Of a stretch of DNA of 64,000 nucleotides, positions 8,392 through 24,140 are shown piece after piece. This stretch comes from an uncultured Gemmatimonadales bacterium (lineage in GTDB: Bacteria; Gemmatimonadota; Gemmatimonadetes; Gemmatimonadales; GWC2-71-9). The number at the start of each line of letters is the position of its first letter. Position 1 is the stretch's first letter. A model generated the notes under the pieces. That model searched no databases, was not told the DNA's origin, and saw only the letters and a list, made by a program, of their open reading frames with translations. The DNA is taken from contig CAWCFX010000001.1 in NCBI GenBank assembly GCA_963795085.1, positions 224,001-288,000 on the forward strand. The letters run 5' to 3'. The position numbers and the translations under genes are program-made.

Positions 8392-11300
8392 ATGCGCGTG
8401 TGTGGTCCAGTTGGCTTCGTTCGCCGGGCGCGGGAGTTCGCGCTGGCGGCGGTTGCGCTGGCAGTGAGCGCGGGTGCGCTCCTGGCCCAGGGCACCGGTA
8501 AGATCGAGGGGCGGGTCCGCGATCAAGCGGGCGCACCCATCGCCAATGCCCAGGTCACCATCGTCGGGAGCACGTTTGGTGCCCTGACGAACAACCAGGG
8601 ATACTACTTCTTCAACAACGTGCCGGTGGGTACGGCCAGTATTCGCGCCGCGTTCGTGGGTTACAAGTCGGCCGAGGCGCAGGGTGTGCGCGTCCTGGCT
8701 GGCCAGACCGTGACCCAGGACATCCAGCTCGAGCAGACGCCGTTCCAGGTCGACGAGATCACCGTGACGGCGGCCGCCACCCCGCTGGTGCCGCGCGACG
8801 AGGTCACCACCCGTCAGCGGCTGCAGGGCGACTACGTAGAAGCCCTGCCGGCGGACCGGATCAACAACATCCTTGCTCTGCAGCCGGGCGTCGTCGCGAG
8901 CCCGGGCGGGGGTGCGTTGTCCATTCGCGGTGGCCGTACCGAACAGGCCGCGACGTACGTGGACGGCGTCCCGGTCACCCCGGGGTACCGGGGCACCGGC
9001 TTCGGCTCGTCGGTAGGAAACGGCAACGGCGCCAATGGCCCGAACTCGGGGGTATCCATCGGCACCAACGCCTTCGAGCAGGCCTCGGTGACCACCGGCG
9101 CCTCCTCGGCCGAGTTCGGCAATGCCCAGTCCGGCATCATCAACATCGAAACCCGGACCGGAGGAAATTCCTTCCGCGGCAATGTGCAGTACGAAACCGA
9201 TGAGCCCTTTGGAGTCGGTCACAGCCTGGGCTTCAACCGGCTCGCAGCCAGCCTGGGAGGACCCACAGGTCTCAAGAACCTGACGTTCTTCCTTTCCGGC
9301 GTCCTGGAAGGCCGGCAGTCCCAGGCGGTCGGGTATGATGCCATCAATAGTCCACTGTTTCTCCCCGTCGGGATCGACACGACGGTTGCGGTGCCCAGCG
9401 CCATCAACGATCCCACTGCCGACACCACGTTCGTGGACGTCCAGGCCTATGCGATTGCGCGGGGCAAGTGCGACATCTTCTCAGGGAGCAGCAACAGCGA
9501 CATCGCCGACAATTACGGGGTAGAGTGCGCCGGCATCCGGGTGCCGGGAACCGCCTCGACCGTCTATCAGACGTCGGCCAAGCTCAACTATACCTTTGGG
9601 ACCGGCAGCCGGATCTTCCTGGCCTGGCAGGGCAGCCGGAACCACGGCCGGAACGGCGGCGGGTTCAATAACCCGCAGAACATCGGCGGTTTCCGGGTCA
9701 ACAACAGCAACTTCACTTTGGGGTGGACCCAGAACCTGAGTCGGTCCGCCGACCGGGCCCTGGCCCTGGACGCATATCTCTCTTACCAGATGGACCGGCA
9801 GCTGGGCAGCCTGCTCTCCCGGCAGTCCGAGCTGGATACCCGCGACCCGTTCGGCGGGTTCATCCTGGGCGGCCTCGATTTCCTGTGGGATTTCGACAAT
9901 TTCCCGCTCAATGAAGAGCTCATCAACAATTTCCGGAACAACATCCCGGGCAGCCGGCGCTCGCCGCTGGACCTCGAGAATACCAGCCAGTATTCATTGA
10001 TCAATTTGTATCGGAACAGTGCGTACGGGCTGGACGGGGGCTCGGAAACCGGCGGACCGGCGGGGGTCCTTACCATGTACCGGGAGAACCGGCTCCGCGG
10101 CAAGGCCAACCTCGACTGGCAGTTCGACCGCTATAACCGGCTCAAGCTGGGTGGTGAGTTCACCCGGTTTGATATCGGGAGTTATGCCCACGGACTGGCG
10201 ACGCAGGGCTTCTCGGAAGCCTTCATTGAGAAGCCGGTCTCGTACGACGTCTTCCTCGAGGACCGGCTGGACCTGGGCGACGTGGTCGTGGTGGGCGGCC
10301 TGCGGTACGACTTCTATGACTCCCGCGCGGCCCGGCCCTACGTGCTGGATACCGTGTCGAGTAACGCCACCTTCGGCCAGTACAGCTATTTCCCGACACC
10401 CAACAGCTACGGCTCGGGCGGAGTGATGTTCAACGGGCAGCCGCTGACGAAGTACGTGGATGACCCGACCCACGACTACCTGAGCCCCCACATCCAGGTG
10501 TCGTTCCCGGTCACCGACCGGACCAACTTCCGGCTCTCCTACGCCCACCAGGTGCAGGCCCCGGACTTCAACCTGATCCTGGGCGGCATCAACACCGACC
10601 TGCGGGTCACCAACACCAACCACGTGTACGGTTCCGACCTCGACTTCGGCAAGACCATCACCTTCGAGTTCGGCATCCGGCACGCCTTCAGCGACGACAT
10701 GGTGCTGGACATCTCGGCGTACAACAAGGACATCCTGTCCGACGCCGCGGGACGGCTGGTCTCGTTCCCGGACCCGGCCCGGCTGGGCGAGAACGTGGAC
10801 ATCCGGATCTTCACCAACGCCGACTTCGGCAACGCCCGGGGCATCGATCTCCGGCTGGACCGGCGGATCGGGCGGTTCTTCAACGGGGTCCTGAGCTACA
10901 CCTTCCAGGACGCCAAGAACACCGGGTCGGACCCGTTCACGTTCATCAACTTCGGCTCCCGGATCATCAACCAGATCTCGGGCGGCAACCAGCCGCCCCC
11001 GCAGAGCATTTTTCCGACGGCTAACAGCCGGCCGCACAACCTGGCGGGTTCCTTCGCGCTCACCGTTCCGAGCGACTGGAAGGAAGGCTCCACGATGGGG
11101 TCCATCCTCCGCGGGGTCGGCATTACGGCGCTGTTCCGCTACTCCAGTGGCACCGCCTACACCAAGTGCCCGGCGGAAACCGGCAACGAGGCCGTCATCT
11201 CGGGCGTTGTCTGCAATCGGGAGTTCGAGGGCGACTTCTTCGGCGCCCGACGGCCCGCCTTCAAGCAGCTGGACATGAAGTTCACCAAGGGCTTCGGCCT

Positions 11301-16814: not shown

Positions 16815-18473
16815 ATGGAAATACGCCGGAAGGCCCGGCGCACCTTCCCCGGCCAGCGAGTCCTGCTGGCCTGGCTGTTCGCTCTTCGCATCCTGCTGGC
16901 GGTCGGCGGCGTGGTGGCCGCCCTCCTCACCCGCAACCTGGGCGGGCCCGAAGCCGCGCTGATCATCATGACGGCGGCGCTCCTGGCCTTTATCATCACG
17001 CCCTACGCCTATTGGCTGGTCTGGATGAAGGAGCGGCAGCCGGGGCTGATCTTCTTCGGCCTCCAGGTGCTGGTGGACCTGTACCTCATTACCGCCATTG
17101 TCCACTACACCAGCGGCGCCCAGAGCGCGTTCACCTTTCTCTTCGTCCTGCTGATCGCGGCCTACACCACGCTGCTCTCCTTCCGGGGGGCGCTGGTCGT
17201 GGTCATCCTGGCGACCGTGGGCTATTTCGGCGACACCTACTACCTCCATCGCGATACGATCGGCGTGGCGTTCTGGGGCCAGCTGATCCTCTTCGGCTCG
17301 GTGTTCGCCATGATGGCGCCCATGGTGGCGCGCCTCCGGGAAGCCAGCGAAGAGCACGCATCCCTGGAGACCGAGTTGCGGCGGGTGCGGCTGGAGGCCG
17401 ATGACATTCTCCGGAACATCCGGTCCGGGGTGATCACGGTGGACGGGGCGGGACGGCTGGCGTTCATCAACCCGATGGCGGCGCGGCTGCTGGAAATCGA
17501 AAGCGAGCAGCTGACCGGCATGCCGGTGCTGGACCTGCTGAAACTGCGGTCTCCCGAACTCTGGGCCGCCATCGTGGCCGCGATCCGGCACGGCCGCAAG
17601 GTGAACCGGGCCGAAGGGATGGTCCAGCTGGCGGACGGCCGCATGTTTCCCATCGGCCTCAGCACCACCACGTTCGAGGACCAGGACCAGCAGCCGCCGT
17701 CGGTCACGGCTATCTTTACCGATATCTCGGACAGCAAGCGGATTCAGGAACTCCACCTTCGTGCCGAAAGACTGGAAGCGGTCGCGGCGCTCTCCGCGTC
17801 CCTGGCCCACGAGATCCGCAACCCCCTGGCCTCGATCCGGAGTTCGGTGGAGCAACTCGCCCGCTCCGCCCGGGCCGACGACGACGAGCGGTTCCTGGCC
17901 AGTCTCATCGTCCGGGAGAGCGACCGGCTGAGCCGGCTGCTGAGCGAATTTCTCGACTTCTCCCGGGTCCGGGTGACCCGCTTCGACCCGGTGGACCTGC
18001 ATGGGGTGGTCCTGGCGGCGGCCCGTCTGGTGCGGGAACACCCCGACGCGAAGATCGAAACCGAGATCGACGTTCGAGGCGGCCGGGCCATGATGGACGG
18101 CGACGAGGACCTCCTGCACCGGGTGGTGGCCAACCTGCTGCTGAATGCGGTGCAGGCGGCCAACGGCAAGGTCAAGGTGGTCGCCGTGACCGGCCCGGCC
18201 CACATGAGCGATCTCCCGGTCGGCTGTGTCATGGACAATCCGGTGCGGCTGGAGATCCGCGACAATGGCCCCGGCATTCCCGAGGAAGTCCGGGAGCGGA
18301 TCTTCGAGCCCTTCGTCACCGGCAGGACTGGTGGAACCGGGCTGGGTCTGGCCATAGTTCAGCGTGCCGTCGAGGCCCACCGGGGATTGGTGCTGGTGGA
18401 GTCGGCCCCCGGCCATGGCACTACGTTCACCATCTTCTTTCCGGCCCGGTGGTCGGCTGAGGAAGCGGCATGA
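16815..18473 (+). CDS. pilS: Membrane sensor histidine kinase, PilS-like
   Basis: About six TM segments, PAS domain, AHEIRNPL H-box, NLLLNA, DNGPGI, GTGLGL; linked to an NtrC-type regulator and pilin. Confidence 0.78.
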   Translation: MEIRRKARRTFPGQRVLLAWLFALRILLAVGGVVAALLTRNLGGPEAALIIMTAALLAFIITPYAYWLVWMKERQPGLIFFGLQVLVDLYLITAIVHYTSGAQSAFTFLFVLLIAAYTTLLSFRGALVVVILATVGYFGDTYYLHRDTIGVAFWGQLILFGSVFAMMAPMVARLREASEEHASLETELRRVRLEADDILRNIRSGVITVDGAGRLAFINPMAARLLEIESEQLTGMPVLDLLKLRSPELWAAIVAAIRHGRKVNRAEGMVQLADGRMFPIGLSTTTFEDQDQQPPSVTAIFTDISDSKRIQELHLRAERLEAVAALSASLAHEIRNPLASIRSSVEQLARSARADDDERFLASLIVRESDRLSRLLSEFLDFSRVRVTRFDPVDLHGVVLAAARLVREHPDAKIETEIDVRGGRAMMDGDEDLLHRVVANLLLNAVQAANGKVKVVAVTGPAHMSDLPVGCVMDNPVRLEIRDNGPGIPEEVRERIFEPFVTGRTGGTGLGLAIVQRAVEAHRGLVLVESAPGHGTTFTIFFPARWSAEEAA

Positions 18474-19852
18474 GTCAGAAACCAACGGTCCTCATCATCG
18501 ACGACGAGTCGGGCATCCTCGATACCCTGCGGATCCTGCTCAAGAAGGAAGGCTTCGAGGTCACCACCGCCCAGGGCGGCAAGGCCGGGCTGGACCAGAT
18601 CCGGGCCGGCACCCACGATATCATCCTGACCGATGTCCGGATGCCCCAGGTGAGCGGCTTGGACATCCTGCAGGCGGCGCGGGAGCAGGACCCGATGACC
18701 CCGGTCATCCTGATGACGGCCCAGGCCTCGCTCCAGACCGCCATCGGCGCCGTGAATGCCGGCGCTTTCTATTATATCCAGAAGCCCTTCGCCAACGACG
18801 AGCTGGTCGCCATTCTCCGGCGCGCCTGCGACTACCGCGCCGTCAAGGTCGAGAACAAGCACCTCAAGACCGAAATCCGCCGCAAGGACAGGAACGGCGT
18901 CGCCCGGCCCATCGGGAAGTCGCGGCGGTTCATGGACACCCTCAGGCTGGCCGAGCAGGTCGCCCCCACCGATTCGACCGTGCTGATCCAGGGCGAAAGC
19001 GGGACCGGCAAGGAAGTCATCGCCAACTACATCCACAATCTTTCCAACCGGACCGGCGGACCCTTCCTGTCCATCAACTGCGGCGCCCTGCCGGAGAACC
19101 TGCTGGAAAGCGAGTTGTTCGGCCACGTGAAGGGGTCGTTCACGGGGGCGGTCCGGGACAAGCAGGGCCTGTTCGCCGCCGCCCGCGGCGGCAGCTTCTT
19201 CCTCGACGAAGTGGGCGAGATGACGCCGGCCCTGCAGATCAAGCTGCTCCGGGTGCTCCAGGAACGGGAGGCGATCCCGGTCGGCGCCACCGAGGCCATT
19301 CCCGTCGATGTGCGGATCATCGCCGCCACCAACCGCGACCTGGAAGAGGAGTGCCGCCGCGGGGCCTTTCGCTCCGATCTCTTCTACCGGCTGAACGTGA
19401 TCCCGCTCCAGTTGCCCCCGCTCAGGGACCGGCGGGAGGATGTTCTTCCCCTCATGGAGACGTTCCTCCAGACCCTGGCCCAGGACCACGGAATGGAGCC
19501 CAAGGCGCTGTCCTCCGAGGCGCTCGACGCCGTGATGGTGTACGACTGGCCGGGCAATGTCCGGGAACTGGAGAATGCCCTGGAACACGCCGTGGTGCTC
19601 ACCAAGGGGCCCGTCATCGAGCCGTCCGCGCTCCCCGAGCGCATCACCAAGCGGCGCAAGGAGCCGCTGGTGGCGGAGCGGTCCTTCCAGAATCCCACCC
19701 TCGATGTCATCGAGCGCGCCTACATCATGTGGGTGCTCCAGGTAGAAGGCGGAAACAAGACCCGCGCCGCCGAGATCCTCGGCATCGACCCCTCCACCCT
19801 GTACCGGAAACTGAGCCGGTACGAGGAGGTGAAGGAGCCGGTGGGGAATTGA
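18470..19852 (+). CDS. pilR: Sigma54-dependent response regulator, PilR-like
   Basis: REC (DD..D..T..K), GESGTGKE, ESELFGHVKGSFTGA, FLDEVGE, WPGNVREL, Fis-type HTH. Confidence 0.82.
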   Translation: MSQKPTVLIIDDESGILDTLRILLKKEGFEVTTAQGGKAGLDQIRAGTHDIILTDVRMPQVSGLDILQAAREQDPMTPVILMTAQASLQTAIGAVNAGAFYYIQKPFANDELVAILRRACDYRAVKVENKHLKTEIRRKDRNGVARPIGKSRRFMDTLRLAEQVAPTDSTVLIQGESGTGKEVIANYIHNLSNRTGGPFLSINCGALPENLLESELFGHVKGSFTGAVRDKQGLFAAARGGSFFLDEVGEMTPALQIKLLRVLQEREAIPVGATEAIPVDVRIIAATNRDLEEECRRGAFRSDLFYRLNVIPLQLPPLRDRREDVLPLMETFLQTLAQDHGMEPKALSSEALDAVMVYDWPGNVRELENALEHAVVLTKGPVIEPSALPERITKRRKEPLVAERSFQNPTLDVIERAYIMWVLQVEGGNKTRAAEILGIDPSTLYRKLSRYEEVKEPVGN

Positions 19853-20974: not shown

Positions 20975-22243
20975 ATGCACCTGCTCTCGCTGACTGATGA
21001 TAGTGCGCTTCGCGAGGAATTGCGCGGGACGCTGGGCGACGAAGCATGCGAGTTCCGGAGCCCCTCCGCGTCGGCCCAGGAGCTGGAGCAGGCCATCATC
21101 CGGAGCCCCGAGGCCATCCTGCTCGATCTCGCCGGGGCGGCCGAAGCGGGAACCGCATTTTTACGGTCCTTTGCCGAGCGGGGCGAAAACATCCCGGTCC
21201 TGGTCATCTGCGGCGCCGATCAGCGCGAGGCCGGTCTCCGGGCGCTCAAGTCCGGCGCGGCCGATTACCTGATGCGGCCGGTGTCCATGGATGAGCTGGG
21301 CGCTCGGCTGGCCCGCGCCCAGGAGGCCGCCCATCTGCGCCGGGAAACCGCGGCGCTCCGGGTCTCGCTGGAGCGCAATTCCGCCCGTACGGCGTTCGTG
21401 GCGGAGAGCGAGATCATGGTGGGGATCCGGGATTCCGTCGCCGCGCTGGCCGGCGGCCACGAGCCGCTCCTCATGGTCGGCGAGCGGGGGACCGGGAAGA
21501 AGACCCTGGCCGAGTTCATCCACCGGCTCGACGGCCACCGGCGCACCCCGCCCGGCATTCTGTCCTGCCATGCCCTCGGTTCGGGACTGCTCGACTCCGC
21601 CGCCTGGCAGGCGGCGCGCGACTCCGGCACCGCCATTCTCGAAGGCATCGAGAACCTCCCCCGCCCCGAGCAGGAGCGGTTGGCCGCGAGCCTGGGGACC
21701 AACGGCGCGAAACGTCCCGTGCGGGTCATCGCGATCGCCCGTACCCACCTGGACGACCCGGACCAGCGGGGCACCGTGTCTCCCCAGTTGTTCGAGCGGT
21801 TCGCGTCCTCCATGTTCGTGCTGCCGCCGTTGCGGGAGCGCGCGCCGGACATCCCGGCGCTGCTCGCCCACTTCGCGCAGCGCACCGCGCAGCGCCTGGG
21901 CCGGCCGGTCAGCGTTTCACCCCGGGCCCTGGCCATGCTGGCGGTGTATTCCTGGCCGGGCAACGTGGCCGAACTGGAGAGCGCCGTGGAACGGGCCGCC
22001 CTGCTGGGCGGCAGCGGCCGGCTGGAATACGCCGATTTCGGCTTGGTGCCGGGTCTCGCCAGCCCGGGCGAAACACCAGGCGGCGCCCTGGAACTCAAGC
22101 CCCAGGTCGAGGCCTTCGAGCGCCAGGTGATCCTCCAGGCCCTCTCCGCCGCCAAGGGAAACCGGCAGGCGGCCGCTCGGCTCCTGGGCATCAGTCTCCG
22201 GACCCTCTTCTACAAGATCAAGAGGTATGGGGTGGAGGGTTGA
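20975..22243 (+). CDS. Degenerate NtrC-like regulator (REC-AAA+-Fis HTH) lacking the GAFTGA loop
   Basis: GERGTGKK, LPPLRER, YSWPGNVAELE, AARLLGISLRTLFYKIKRYG; ESELFG/GAFTGA segment absent. Confidence 0.8.
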   Translation: MHLLSLTDDSALREELRGTLGDEACEFRSPSASAQELEQAIIRSPEAILLDLAGAAEAGTAFLRSFAERGENIPVLVICGADQREAGLRALKSGAADYLMRPVSMDELGARLARAQEAAHLRRETAALRVSLERNSARTAFVAESEIMVGIRDSVAALAGGHEPLLMVGERGTGKKTLAEFIHRLDGHRRTPPGILSCHALGSGLLDSAAWQAARDSGTAILEGIENLPRPEQERLAASLGTNGAKRPVRVIAIARTHLDDPDQRGTVSPQLFERFASSMFVLPPLRERAPDIPALLAHFAQRTAQRLGRPVSVSPRALAMLAVYSWPGNVAELESAVERAALLGGSGRLEYADFGLVPGLASPGETPGGALELKPQVEAFERQVILQALSAAKGNRQAAARLLGISLRTLFYKIKRYGVEG

Positions 22244-22247
22244 GGTT

Positions 22248-22960
22248 GGCTGGCGTTACTTGGATTTGAGTCTGCCCGAACCAACAAAGCACGAAAAGAA
22301 ACACAAAAGAAGAAACTTTCCTCGTAGTAACTTCATCTTCCCAAGACTTTTGGTTGTTCTGTCTTCTCGTTTCGTGATTTGTGGTCCGGCGGTTCTGGCT
22401 GGCGTCACTCTGATTTGAGCCTGCCCGAGCACGAAAGCACGAAGGACAAATAGAAACAGCAAAAAAGACTATCGCGTGTGATAGTCTTTCCTTTTTTCTG
22501 CTATTTGGTCGTTTGGTCGTTTGGTCGTTTGGCTGTTGGCTCGCGTCACTTGGATTTGAGCCTGCCCGGAACTACAAAGCACGAAAAAAACAAACAAAGA
22601 AGAAACTCTCCTCGTCTTGGCTTCGCTCCCAAGGCGTTGATTCTTCTTGTTTCTTCCTTTCGTGATTTGTTGTCCGGCAGTTGGTGCTGGCGTCACTCAG
22701 ATTCGAGCCTGCCCGGGACAACAAAGCACGAAAAATACAAAAAGAATAAATCTCCTCGTCGTAACTTTATCCTCCCAAGACGTTGCTTTTCCTGTTTTTC
22801 TTTATTTCGTGATTTGTTGTCCGGCGGTTTTGGCTGGCTCTTCGGCTGTTCGGCGGTTCGGCCTTTGTCAATCGGATTTGAGCCTGCCCGGACCAACAAA
22901 GCACGAAAGAACAAAAATAAAGCTTTTCTTTTCTGTCATTTCGTCGTTTGGCTGTTAACG
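22248..22960. repeat. AT-rich tandem array of five ~141-175 bp hairpin-forming units
   Basis: Core GATTYGAGYCTGCCCG...AAAGCACGAA at 22263, 22412, 22553, 22700, 22875; complementary arm TTTCGTGATTTGT(T/G)GTCCGGC in units 1, 3 and 4. Confidence 0.92.
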
Positions 22961-22979
22961 CTGTTTTGGATTCCTTTTT

Positions 22980-24140
22980 CTATTGGCAGCCATTCACCCC
23001 CGGATTTCGATCCCTCGGATCCCGGCCCGGCAGCGTCCCGTCCAGCCGCAGCGCGTAGCTGTCCTGCACGTTGTTCCCCTCATAGCGAATGGACTGCAGG
23101 ATCATCGCGGCGCGGGTCCTGGTGCTGTTCAGGCTGTACCAGTTGTTGGTGGACTCGGTATAGACCGGCCCGCAGCGTACCAGCTGGACCGCGATCCCCT
23201 TCTCATAGACCACGCCGAGCATATGCTCGCCGCGGGGATGCATCCCGTTTTCGTCGAAGAAGACGGCCTTCACCTGGGTGGCCGTCCCACTGGCCCGTAC
23301 CGAGAACTTCCGCCCGGCCCAGGCCACGTTCCCGTTGAGGCTCACCGGGTTCGGGTCGCCCAGGGTGTTGTAGTCCACCCGCTTCGGGCCGGCGGAATCC
23401 CAGGCGATCTCGGTGGGCAGGGCCACCAGCGCCTTCCAGTCGTAGAGCGCGGGGCCGGCCGGCGCCAGCAGGGTGAAGACCGCCTGGGCCAGGATCTCGT
23501 GCGGCTTGCGGGTGGAGACCGGCGCCTGGGCTGCGCCGGCCGCGCATTGCGTGCTGTAGAGCGCCAGCTGGTTCGGCTGCAGTGCCGGGAGCTCCTCGCC
23601 GTGGGATAGGACATAGCCTTCATTGGGACGGCCCGGGCGGCCGGCCTGGATGGACAGGAAGCCGGGCGACAGGTTGGCCCCCCTGAGCCGGTACCAGCTG
23701 GTGCTGCCCGCGCCGCCCCGGATCGGGCACCGGGCCAGTTCGGCGCCCAGGCCGGCCTGCTTCAGCGCCGCCACCACCGGCGCCTCGCCGATCGGCGCCC
23801 CGGTGTTCCGGAAAAAGATGTTGAGGACCATGGTCCGGGCCCCGGTCGCCATCACCGTGAAGCTCCGGCCGCCGACCGTCGCGGTGCCGGTCCGGGTGAA
23901 ACACCCGCCATCGGGGAGGCAGCTCTGCAGCGCTGCCACCGGCAGCGGCGCCCAGCGGATGGCCGGGAGTTTCTCGAGCCCGTCCCAGTCGGCGGGAAGA
24001 CTCATCGCGAGGTAAGCCCTGGCGATACCGGCCAACTCACTCTCCGGCGTAGGGCCGGCGTGGAAGGCGGAGAGCCCGATCGCGGCAGCGGCGGCGGCGA
24101 TTGCCCCGATGGCAAACCTGGTTCGCATGGCTGTTCTCAC
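22980..24140 (-). CDS. Exported hypothetical protein with an internally duplicated domain
   Basis: Signal peptide; the two halves align (GGRSFTVMATG/AGRKFSVRASG; ELARC..WYRL/QLVRC..WYSL). Confidence 0.75.
   Translation of the reverse strand: MRTAMRTRFAIGAIAAAAAAIGLSAFHAGPTPESELAGIARAYLAMSLPADWDGLEKLPAIRWAPLPVAALQSCLPDGGCFTRTGTATVGGRSFTVMATGARTMVLNIFFRNTGAPIGEAPVVAALKQAGLGAELARCPIRGGAGSTSWYRLRGANLSPGFLSIQAGRPGRPNEGYVLSHGEELPALQPNQLALYSTQCAAGAAQAPVSTRKPHEILAQAVFTLLAPAGPALYDWKALVALPTEIAWDSAGPKRVDYNTLGDPNPVSLNGNVAWAGRKFSVRASGTATQVKAVFFDENGMHPRGEHMLGVVYEKGIAVQLVRCGPVYTESTNNWYSLNSTRTRAAMILQSIRYEGNNVQDSYALRLDGTLPGRDPRDRNPGVNGCQ

Follow-up and report, generated by a model that had tools for sequence, protein, structure and literature searches.

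MITEs of the Correia and ERIC kinds are short, non-coding, AT-rich elements with inverted ends, and their transcripts can form hairpins. In a bidirectional intrinsic terminator, a small GC hairpin stands between an A-run and a T-run, an arrangement that is the same on both strands, and the sigma-54-dependent sRNA genes of the Qrr/LuxO type combine a GG-N10-GC promoter with an activator that has a GAFTGA loop. Long simple-sequence repeats with units of 5–11 nt are said to have been treated by Mrazek et al. in 2007. The REPINs of P. fluorescens SBW25 are made of two conserved inverted ends and a less conserved spacer that form a hairpin of about 100 nt and are described as also forming tandem clusters of units that are near-identical including their flanks, the largest holding four REPINs and one REP in more than 700 bp (PMC3116915). 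For the REP325 array of E. coli, a preprint proposes a dual role as terminator and mRNA stabiliser (bioRxiv 10.64898/2026.03.23.713779).

The array described here lies in a window of 64,000 nt, the whole stretch of DNA that was analysed (positions 224,001 to 288,000 of contig CAWCFX010000001.1 in assembly GCA_963795085.1, from an uncultured Gemmatimonadales bacterium), and is probably, with a likelihood of about 70%, a local tandem amplification of a genus-specific intergenic repeat that is REP/BIME/REPIN-like, AT-rich and imperfectly palindromic. Like the SBW25 REPINs, the elements are inverted-end hairpins that are extragenic, form tandem clusters and are specific to a lineage (PMC3116915). 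Among the marks of REPs and REPINs, the over-represented extragenic core, the inverted-doublet hairpin and the tandem clusters were all found, whereas a RAYT gene flanked by the same repeats was not; in further differences from REPINs, the copies number about 46 instead of hundreds, AT-rich octamer runs make up the stems, in a genome of 67% GC, where REPINs have short GC-rich palindromes, and the units have a head of about 30 nt on one side. Palindromic units, alternating orientation, two kinds of linker and a position in 3′ UTRs and between convergent genes are features in common with REP325 (bioRxiv 10.64898/2026.03.23.713779). There is, however, no sequence relation to the E. coli REP/BIME elements, and a function here would be read by analogy, from geometry and context. 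Intergenic octamer units, one unit recurring at many loci, are also a property of long simple-sequence repeats, but the octamer runs of the present family are paired in inverted orientation and accompanied by a GC clamp and by common non-repetitive linkers, and therefore make up discrete hairpin elements.

The array spans 22246–22975 on the plus strand and consists of five tandem units of about 147 bp, each with a head or linker followed by a hairpin, the one-sided head defining the orientation. Unit 1 (22248–22396; head 22248–22270, hairpin 22271–22393) scores 60.7 bits with R1, a covariance model made from 14 units with a stem base of 16 pairs, unit 3 (22538–22684; hairpin 22561–22682) scores 70.8 bits and unit 4 (22685–22831; hairpin 22708–22828) 78.1 bits. 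Unit 2 (22397–22537; hairpin 22420–22537) is a weak family match (27.3 bits, E 0.0014), its interior replaced by a terminator-like hairpin and an octamer run, and unit 5 (22832–22975; 36.7 bits) is degenerate, with a longer linker, a head at about 22859–22886, a truncated hairpin (22883–22965) and no conserved tail. Units 1, 3 and 4 are homologous over their full length and have the CU-rich apex motifs CCTCGT and CCTCCCAAG in common; units 2 and 5 have other interiors. The apex of unit 2 (22464–22489) is a hairpin of 11–13 bp with an A-run on one side and a T-run on the other, scoring as terminator-like on both strands, and that of unit 3 (22613–22636, plus strand) is an 8-bp hairpin with five G-C pairs, followed by a T-rich run and likewise terminator-like by score. 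Tandem Repeats Finder called two octamer repeats on the plus strand, TTTGGTCG in 3.6 copies at 22504–22532, which is the 3′ arm of unit 2, and GGCTGTTC in 3.4 copies at 22836–22862, in the linker preceding unit 5, as well as a single array at 22246–22838 with a period of 147, 4.1 copies, 68% matches and a score of 409. A repeat search placed in-register heads of 90 nt at 22245, 22535, 22682 and 22857, which with unit 2 give spacings of 149, 141, 147 and 175 bp, and also recovered the head/tail inverted repeats. With a GC fraction of 0.45–0.49 against 0.62–0.75 in the flanks, the array is an AT-rich island. In an alignment of the five units an invariant block spans the head and the left stem, through GATT.GAG.CTGCCCG...AAAGCACGAA, the short head of this array being GGCGTCAC..GGATTTGAG, 9 nt ahead of the clamp. 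Head and tail pair with each other in units 1, 3 and 4, where the G of AAAGCACG faces an A and is unpaired in all three. Most of this anatomy had been laid out in the original prediction, namely five units at these spacings, beginning directly behind a stop codon in AT-rich DNA, with a conserved head, tail-to-head pairing with an identical G/A mismatch in units 1, 3 and 4 and inner hairpins in units 2 and 3, and the repeat searches, R1, the folds and the alignment bear it out.

Since repeats mis-assemble easily in metagenome bins, and constant and variable segments alternate here, an assembly artefact or a CRISPR-like array has to be weighed, but either is extremely unlikely. Contigs of a soil run (X1, possibly the source sample) that match 22188–22410, 22569–22719 and 22716–22899 cross the junctions of the gene with unit 1, of unit 3 with unit 4 and of unit 4 with unit 5 with 0–1 differences, none of them crossing from unit 2 to unit 3, and they speak against the artefact that the original prediction had named as one way in which it could fail. 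Three runs, X1–X3, compared with the region yielded short DNA contigs only. Rfam, its models of CRISPR repeats and of STAXI-type tandem hairpins included, has no match at the gathering threshold in the whole window, and its best sub-threshold scores are chance-like, a miRNA model reaching 25 bits against 96 and the best CRISPR model (CRISPR-DR22) 18 bits against 50; a search for known families, proposed with the prediction, thus named none. Phages and plasmids gave no match to the array, and the 12 flanking ORFs scanned include no family of the cas, RT or transposase kind, as had been predicted for the adjacent genes.

Upstream of the array lies the gene of an NtrC-family response regulator with REC, AAA+ and Fis-type HTH domains (20975–22243, plus strand), the TGA of which occupies 22241–22243, unit 1 beginning 4–5 nt past the stop. 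A convergent ORF of 386 aa (22980–24140, minus strand) flanks the array on the other side; it matches no family of Pfam or NCBIfam, and five relatives yielded no homologue. The neighbours of the array comprise a PilS-like kinase, a PilR-like activator, a pilin-like protein and the NtrC-family regulator. Sigma54_activat was matched by this regulator only at 2–69 of its 168 positions, and a GAFTGA or GSFTGA loop is absent from it, whereas the neighbour at 18470–19852 has GSFTGA; to judge from its sequence, the regulator may work without sigma-54. The array is not a device of the adjacent regulator gene. The conserved GG-N10-GC promoter and GAFTGA activator that define a sigma-54-dependent sRNA gene were not found together, the core being present in three of the five heads and its GG kept only in units 1, 3 and 5. 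A search for sigma-70-like promoters in 21800–23400 returned no site, and the heads have at most a -10-like hexamer, with no -35-like element at the right spacing when inspected by eye; the tRNA genes of the genome, also by eye, have CTTGAc and TAnnTT boxes.

These promoter data bear on the idea that each unit is a small-RNA gene with a promoter in the head, a constant handle CCUGCC-CACGAAAGCACGAAA and a seed in the apex, the array then being a row of sibling sRNAs that are possibly processed. The head is indeed one-sided and directional, parts of it (GGATTTGAGCCTKGCC) recur beside hairpins in two congeneric genomes (G003 and G004), and a -10-like hexamer (GATTAT, TATTGT or TAGGAT), which by eye may be set beside the TAnnTT of the tRNA promoters, occurs in the long heads of other members. 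The CU-rich apex motifs of units 1, 3 and 4 are of a kind that we take to be used as anti-Shine-Dalgarno seeds, and some of the terminator-like apexes could end such an RNA. The idea is nonetheless quite unlikely, given the want of sigma-70-like sites and of a well-spaced -35-like element, a sigma-54 core in only three of five heads beside a regulator without GAFTGA, folding energies without strand preference, apexes that are unrelated between loci and the lack of an Rfam match; a gene of this kind, moreover, would not need a conserved right arm.

Folding of the units was compared with dinucleotide shuffles on both strands. Plus-strand z values for units 1 to 5 were +0.21, −1.90, −5.75, −3.67 and −0.05, unit 3 being the best-folding of the five, and minus-strand values were −1.47, −3.47, −4.98, −3.07 and −1.29, so that the shuffles are clearly beaten by units 3 and 4 whichever strand is taken, by unit 2 on the minus strand alone and by no other unit, and a strand preference is absent from the folding energies of the five. 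The succession of an A-rich arm and a T-rich arm is not a strand polarity either, because an inverted repeat reads alike on both strands. When the 24-nt cores were trimmed and the hairpin boundaries set by end-to-end duplex energy, the variable arms of 19 of 22 units paired no better with their own partner than with the arms of other units, among them units 1, 4 and 5, for which 25, 24 and 33 of the 42 non-cognate arm pairs were equally good. The cognate duplex beat all but at most one of 42 non-cognate combinations in the remaining three (unit 2, unit 3 and the unit at 592k), and the mean z of cognate against non-cognate duplexes was −0.32 over the 22 units. Since cognate pairing thus has no general advantage, the apparent covariation of the variable arms is mostly a matter of A-rich against T-rich composition. 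Among units 1, 3 and 4 covariation is negligible (covariation term −0.76 kcal/mol), with two pairs of the variable helix changed on both sides and five broken. True two-sided covariation is confined to the conserved stem base, as compared between members of the family: 88.1% of the cells of the 16-pair base are paired, against 36.7–46.1% with the partner slid (14 units), and 15 cells are changed on both sides, a count reached by 0 of 500 shuffles, these changes being confined to four pairs and partly held in common by related units. The original prediction had taken the arms to differ while keeping their complementarity, and, in one of its two readings, the locus to be a candidate structured-RNA array under selection for structure. 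The former does not survive the comparison of arm pairs in 19 of 22 units, and the latter is not supported, the covariation in units 1, 3 and 4 being negligible and the array not being unique to this locus; the covariation check that it recommended came out positive for the stem base and negative for the variable arms.

The family to which the units belong is dispersed, intergenic, hairpin-forming, clustered and common to congeneric species. In the 3.89-Mb assembly, an nhmmer profile of the five units has 34 matching stretches with E ≤ 1e-3, which fall into 20 clusters and five of which are the array itself, and R1 found 77 matches with both strands counted, merged by hand into 25 clusters with 46 units in all. 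There are 32 occurrences of the exact core CCTGCC-N6-10-AAAGCACGAA and none of its reversed control, and the 9-mer AAGCACGAA occurs 96 times in this genome against about 12 expected. Eleven of the 25 clusters are tandem arrays of 2–5 units, the present array being the largest cluster found, tied with the one at C1 410k; near-identical units occur in other arrays of the genome as well, and one cluster, at the icd-aceK locus, is assigned to the same family by both nhmmer and R1. A unit is laid out as CCTGCC, 4–9 nt, at least one CACGAAAR octamer, an A-rich run, a variable apex, a T-rich run, YTTTCGTG octamers and GGCAGG, the number of repeats per arm differing between units. Most of the other copies have a longer head, GA(T/C)T(A/G)T(T/A)..TG, about 17 nt ahead of the clamp. 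Heads are one-sided except in the copies at C1 432k and 1228k, which have them on both sides, and the inverted ends measure at least 24 nt, rising to about 50 nt where heads stand on both sides. The dispersed copies found here and in congeners, with no described family matching them, agree with the new palindromic, REP/MITE-like family that had been put forward as one alternative in the original prediction, which had also called for the search by covariance model.

Modules held in common by distant loci speak against a family that is only a shared mutational process, in which hairpins would arise in situ by octamer expansion and inversion with no copying between loci. That the stems are octamer runs, with an octamer specific to the species (CACGAAAR, CGCGAAAG, GCGAAAA, CACGGAGA), that octamer arrays occur both inside and beside units, and that the repeat number varies from arm to arm would all suit such an origin. 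The CCTGCC clamp and the head, however, are not octamer repeats, and a non-repetitive linker and head of 90–140 bp is common to different contigs at 83–91%, which makes in situ origin decidedly improbable. The loci at C1 410k and C6 837k have 138 bp in common at 85%, those at C1 592k and C6 715k have 120 bp at 85% and 90 bp at 91%, and a further match between loci covers 53 bp at 98%. What is common between distant loci is the constant module of right stem, linker, head and left stem, the interiors being unrelated. Elsewhere on contig C1, at 10104–10339 and 9050–9250, a family hairpin has an interior of C-rich and G-rich octamer arrays (GGCCCCCT and GGGGCAGG types), and a 155-bp segment is exactly duplicated 1.1 kb away. 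Long tandem arrays of 7–9-nt units (GCTGCAC-, CACTGACC- and TACTCAG-type) also stand upstream of many tRNA genes, for example at C1:475156, C1:616571, C1:680983, C2:351404 and C4:364526.

The occurrence of the family outside this genome was surveyed with R1 in 30 relatives, of which four are congeners and 26 are not, an unpublished genome (G018) entering the tallies only. Three of the four congeneric genomes have matches at E ≤ 0.01 (32 in G004, 18 in G003, 8 in G001 and none in G002), two genomes outside the genus (G011 and G019) have one borderline match each with E of about 0.002, and the remaining 24 of the 30 have none. The congeners are distant, their orthologues of the regulator being 58–71% identical, and their copies keep the design of the element with other octamers (CACGAAAA, CGCGAAAG or CACGAAG). 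The short head (GGATTTGAGCCTKGCC) is one-sided at several of these copies, and between species the one-sided head, some 30 nt long, is conserved in part. The borderline matches beyond the genus are inverted short-repeat hairpins too, with GCGAAAA and CACGGAGA. BLAST of the array against the 30 relatives gave no match. Exact-core matches elsewhere, four singles in 185,579 species genomes and three metagenome contigs, were set aside as apparent chance, all of them being GC-rich and apparently coding, without a hairpin partner. Downstream of the regulator orthologues in G002, G003, G004 and G006, R1 with its filters off gave a best E of 0.54.

A search of the literature for such repeats in Gemmatimonadetes returned nothing relevant, a term search of the RepRanger paper gave no mention of Gemmatimonadota (PMC12306157), and the intrastrand triplex repeats have a different, G/C-rich motif (PMC4666352). 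At G004:C99 1990–2020, downstream of the orthologous regulator, a 13-nt short head (GGATTTGAGCCTG) lies inverted beside repeats of the GAGCGAA type, and at G002:C23 a weaker look-alike of it follows just past the stop of the regulator. The element at the array locus may on this showing predate the species, but R1 finds nothing there, and the match is a lead at most. At G003:C231 600–1140, past the regulator orthologue, an 11-nt repeat (GGCGGTAGAAG and CTTCTACCGCC) forms inverted runs on either side of an ORF that by eye resembles a four-helix-bundle protein of the '23S rRNA intervening sequence' type.

Enzymes that could mobilise the family were sought in four transposase families in this assembly, which is 93% complete. 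Y1_Tnp has four matches, of which one is an intact gene, two belong to a single frameshifted gene and one is a fragment. The intact Y1 transposase (C3:370563–370910) scores 76 bits as IS200 and only 19 bits with the RAYT model, for which the cut-off is 80, and contig C3 has no copy of the repeat family. A RAYT link was rejected for the Y1 loci, which carry other flanking repeats. Nor do Y1 genes follow the repeat family across the 30 relatives: G002 has them but no R1 match, and they occur in eight of 14 other genera of the taxonomic family. Beside the IS200-like ORF (167 aa), at C3:370563–371300, another repeat of about 200 bp stands in two copies, both on one side. It holds small hairpins (GGTCGC..GCGAC and GACAGGCT..AGCCTGTC) and an 18-mer for which a search with up to two mismatches gives 14 strand-matches at 12 positions, including one at about 24726 of the window. 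At C4:546400–547030 lies a Y1 gene that is frameshifted or contains a stop; about seven copies of a 28-bp tandem repeat stand ahead of it, and GC-rich hairpins (CCCCGGCCCGATGGGCCGGG) come after it.

The elements might instead be classical MITEs with terminal inverted repeats, moved by a DDE transposase encoded elsewhere, and they do resemble the Correia and ERIC MITEs in being short, AT-rich and non-coding with inverted ends. Those ends, of 24–50 nt, become long and TIR-like at C1 432k and 1228k, where heads stand on both sides. The matching transposase, however, is missing: PF01526 (Tn3) and PF01609 (DDE_Tnp_1) have no match among the four families searched in the 93% complete assembly, and PF00665 (rve) has a single one, distant from every copy. 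In a further difference from Correia and ERIC elements, the interior is not conserved between loci, and no parent IS was found; at C1 432k and 1228k, where the flanks were read for a target-site duplication, copies abut one another as tandem duplicates without independent junctions, and no such duplication can be defined. A classical MITE is highly improbable.

Called genes overlap less than 15% of 17 of the 20 nhmmer clusters, and in the tabulation of neighbouring genes that had been proposed with the original prediction, 12 of the 25 clusters lie between convergent genes, 10 between co-directional and three between divergent ones, against 20%, 58% and 22% of intergenic bases genome-wide (binomial p=0.0015 for the convergent enrichment, with contexts taken from crude ORF/GC3 gene calls covering 83% of bases). 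Units that stand between convergent genes as A-run, hairpin and T-run have the build of bidirectional terminators, and some of them look like such terminators from their sequence. With a terminator-like site taken as a GC-rich stem of at least five pairs, a short loop and a T-run, the array region has three such sites against 2.5 expected, units 2 and 3 being those that qualify, and the family as a whole has 17 such sites in its 46 units against 9.0 ± 2.5 in shuffles, with 13 of the 46 having at least one; the enrichment is real yet partial. In contrast to bidirectional terminators proper, five in a row would be redundant, most units are without a canonical GC stem and U-tract, and the conserved outer stem is no part of a terminator. 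The array might also have a role at the level of DNA, its units serving one after another to bind a nucleoid, gyrase or IHF-like protein, which has been proposed for BIMEs, or forming cruciform or curved DNA. Such a role would draw on the conserved motifs at regular spacing and on a composition of A-tracts and T-tracts, which should bend DNA. In 13 of 18 clusters (on C1, C4 and C6) the strand with the better score has the sign of the contig GC skew, a hint of a polarity related to replication, but this is not significant (two-sided p of about 0.1), and a role in DNA binding or shape, with no known protein partner, is very unlikely.

For the REP/BIME/REPIN-like amplification favoured here, the following course may be envisaged. 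Each unit is built of a GC clamp (CCTGCC...GGCAGG), a stem of inverted CACGAAAR/YTTTCGTG octamers and a variable, fast-evolving apex. Constant modules of 90–140 bp would be copied between loci by some mechanism, and arrays would grow by unequal recombination or slippage between repeated modules; units 1, 3 and 4 would then be diverged duplicates, which fits array growth, and the arms would change through slippage of octamers. The elements would accumulate or persist mainly at the 3′ ends of genes, where they are presumably tolerated. Transcribed from either strand, an element would have a small hairpin at its apex, flanked by an A-rich arm on the 5′ side and a U-rich arm on the 3′ side, a geometry that could serve as a bidirectional terminator or as a hairpin protecting 3′ ends, by analogy with the way REP arrays act in E. 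coli. Several findings count against this explanation: the RAYT model, at best 19 bits, gives no cognate enzyme, some 46 units are far below the hundreds usual for REPs, terminator-like sites are confined to 13 units, three clusters lie between divergent genes, and the one-sided head, partly conserved across species, is left unexplained. That the head and the octamer hairpin form a functional module used throughout the genus, either as a self-contained RNA gene, whose handle is constant and whose apex varies, or as a portable bidirectional terminator that some factor recognises and copies, is an unlikely reading. If it held, the five-unit array would be a functional multi-copy locus and not junk, and in the case of the portable terminator, new 3′-end signals would be supplied in a GC-rich genome.

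The preferred reading, a local amplification of a genus-specific repeat, removes the tempting, though unsupported, one of a dedicated structured-RNA array beside a sigma-54-type regulator. The repeat family was found described nowhere in the searches made, and its host belongs to a poorly studied soil lineage. For annotation, masking with R1 could spare about 46 loci of this genome, and dozens in congeners, from being flagged again and again as candidate riboswitches or sRNAs. In this family, hairpin elements of about 100–150 nt are put together from octamer simple-sequence repeats, a GC clamp and a short leader, and the pile-up of these elements at the 3′ ends of genes, without a recognisable RAYT, offers a test case for REP-like spread and for the recruitment of repeats as terminators.
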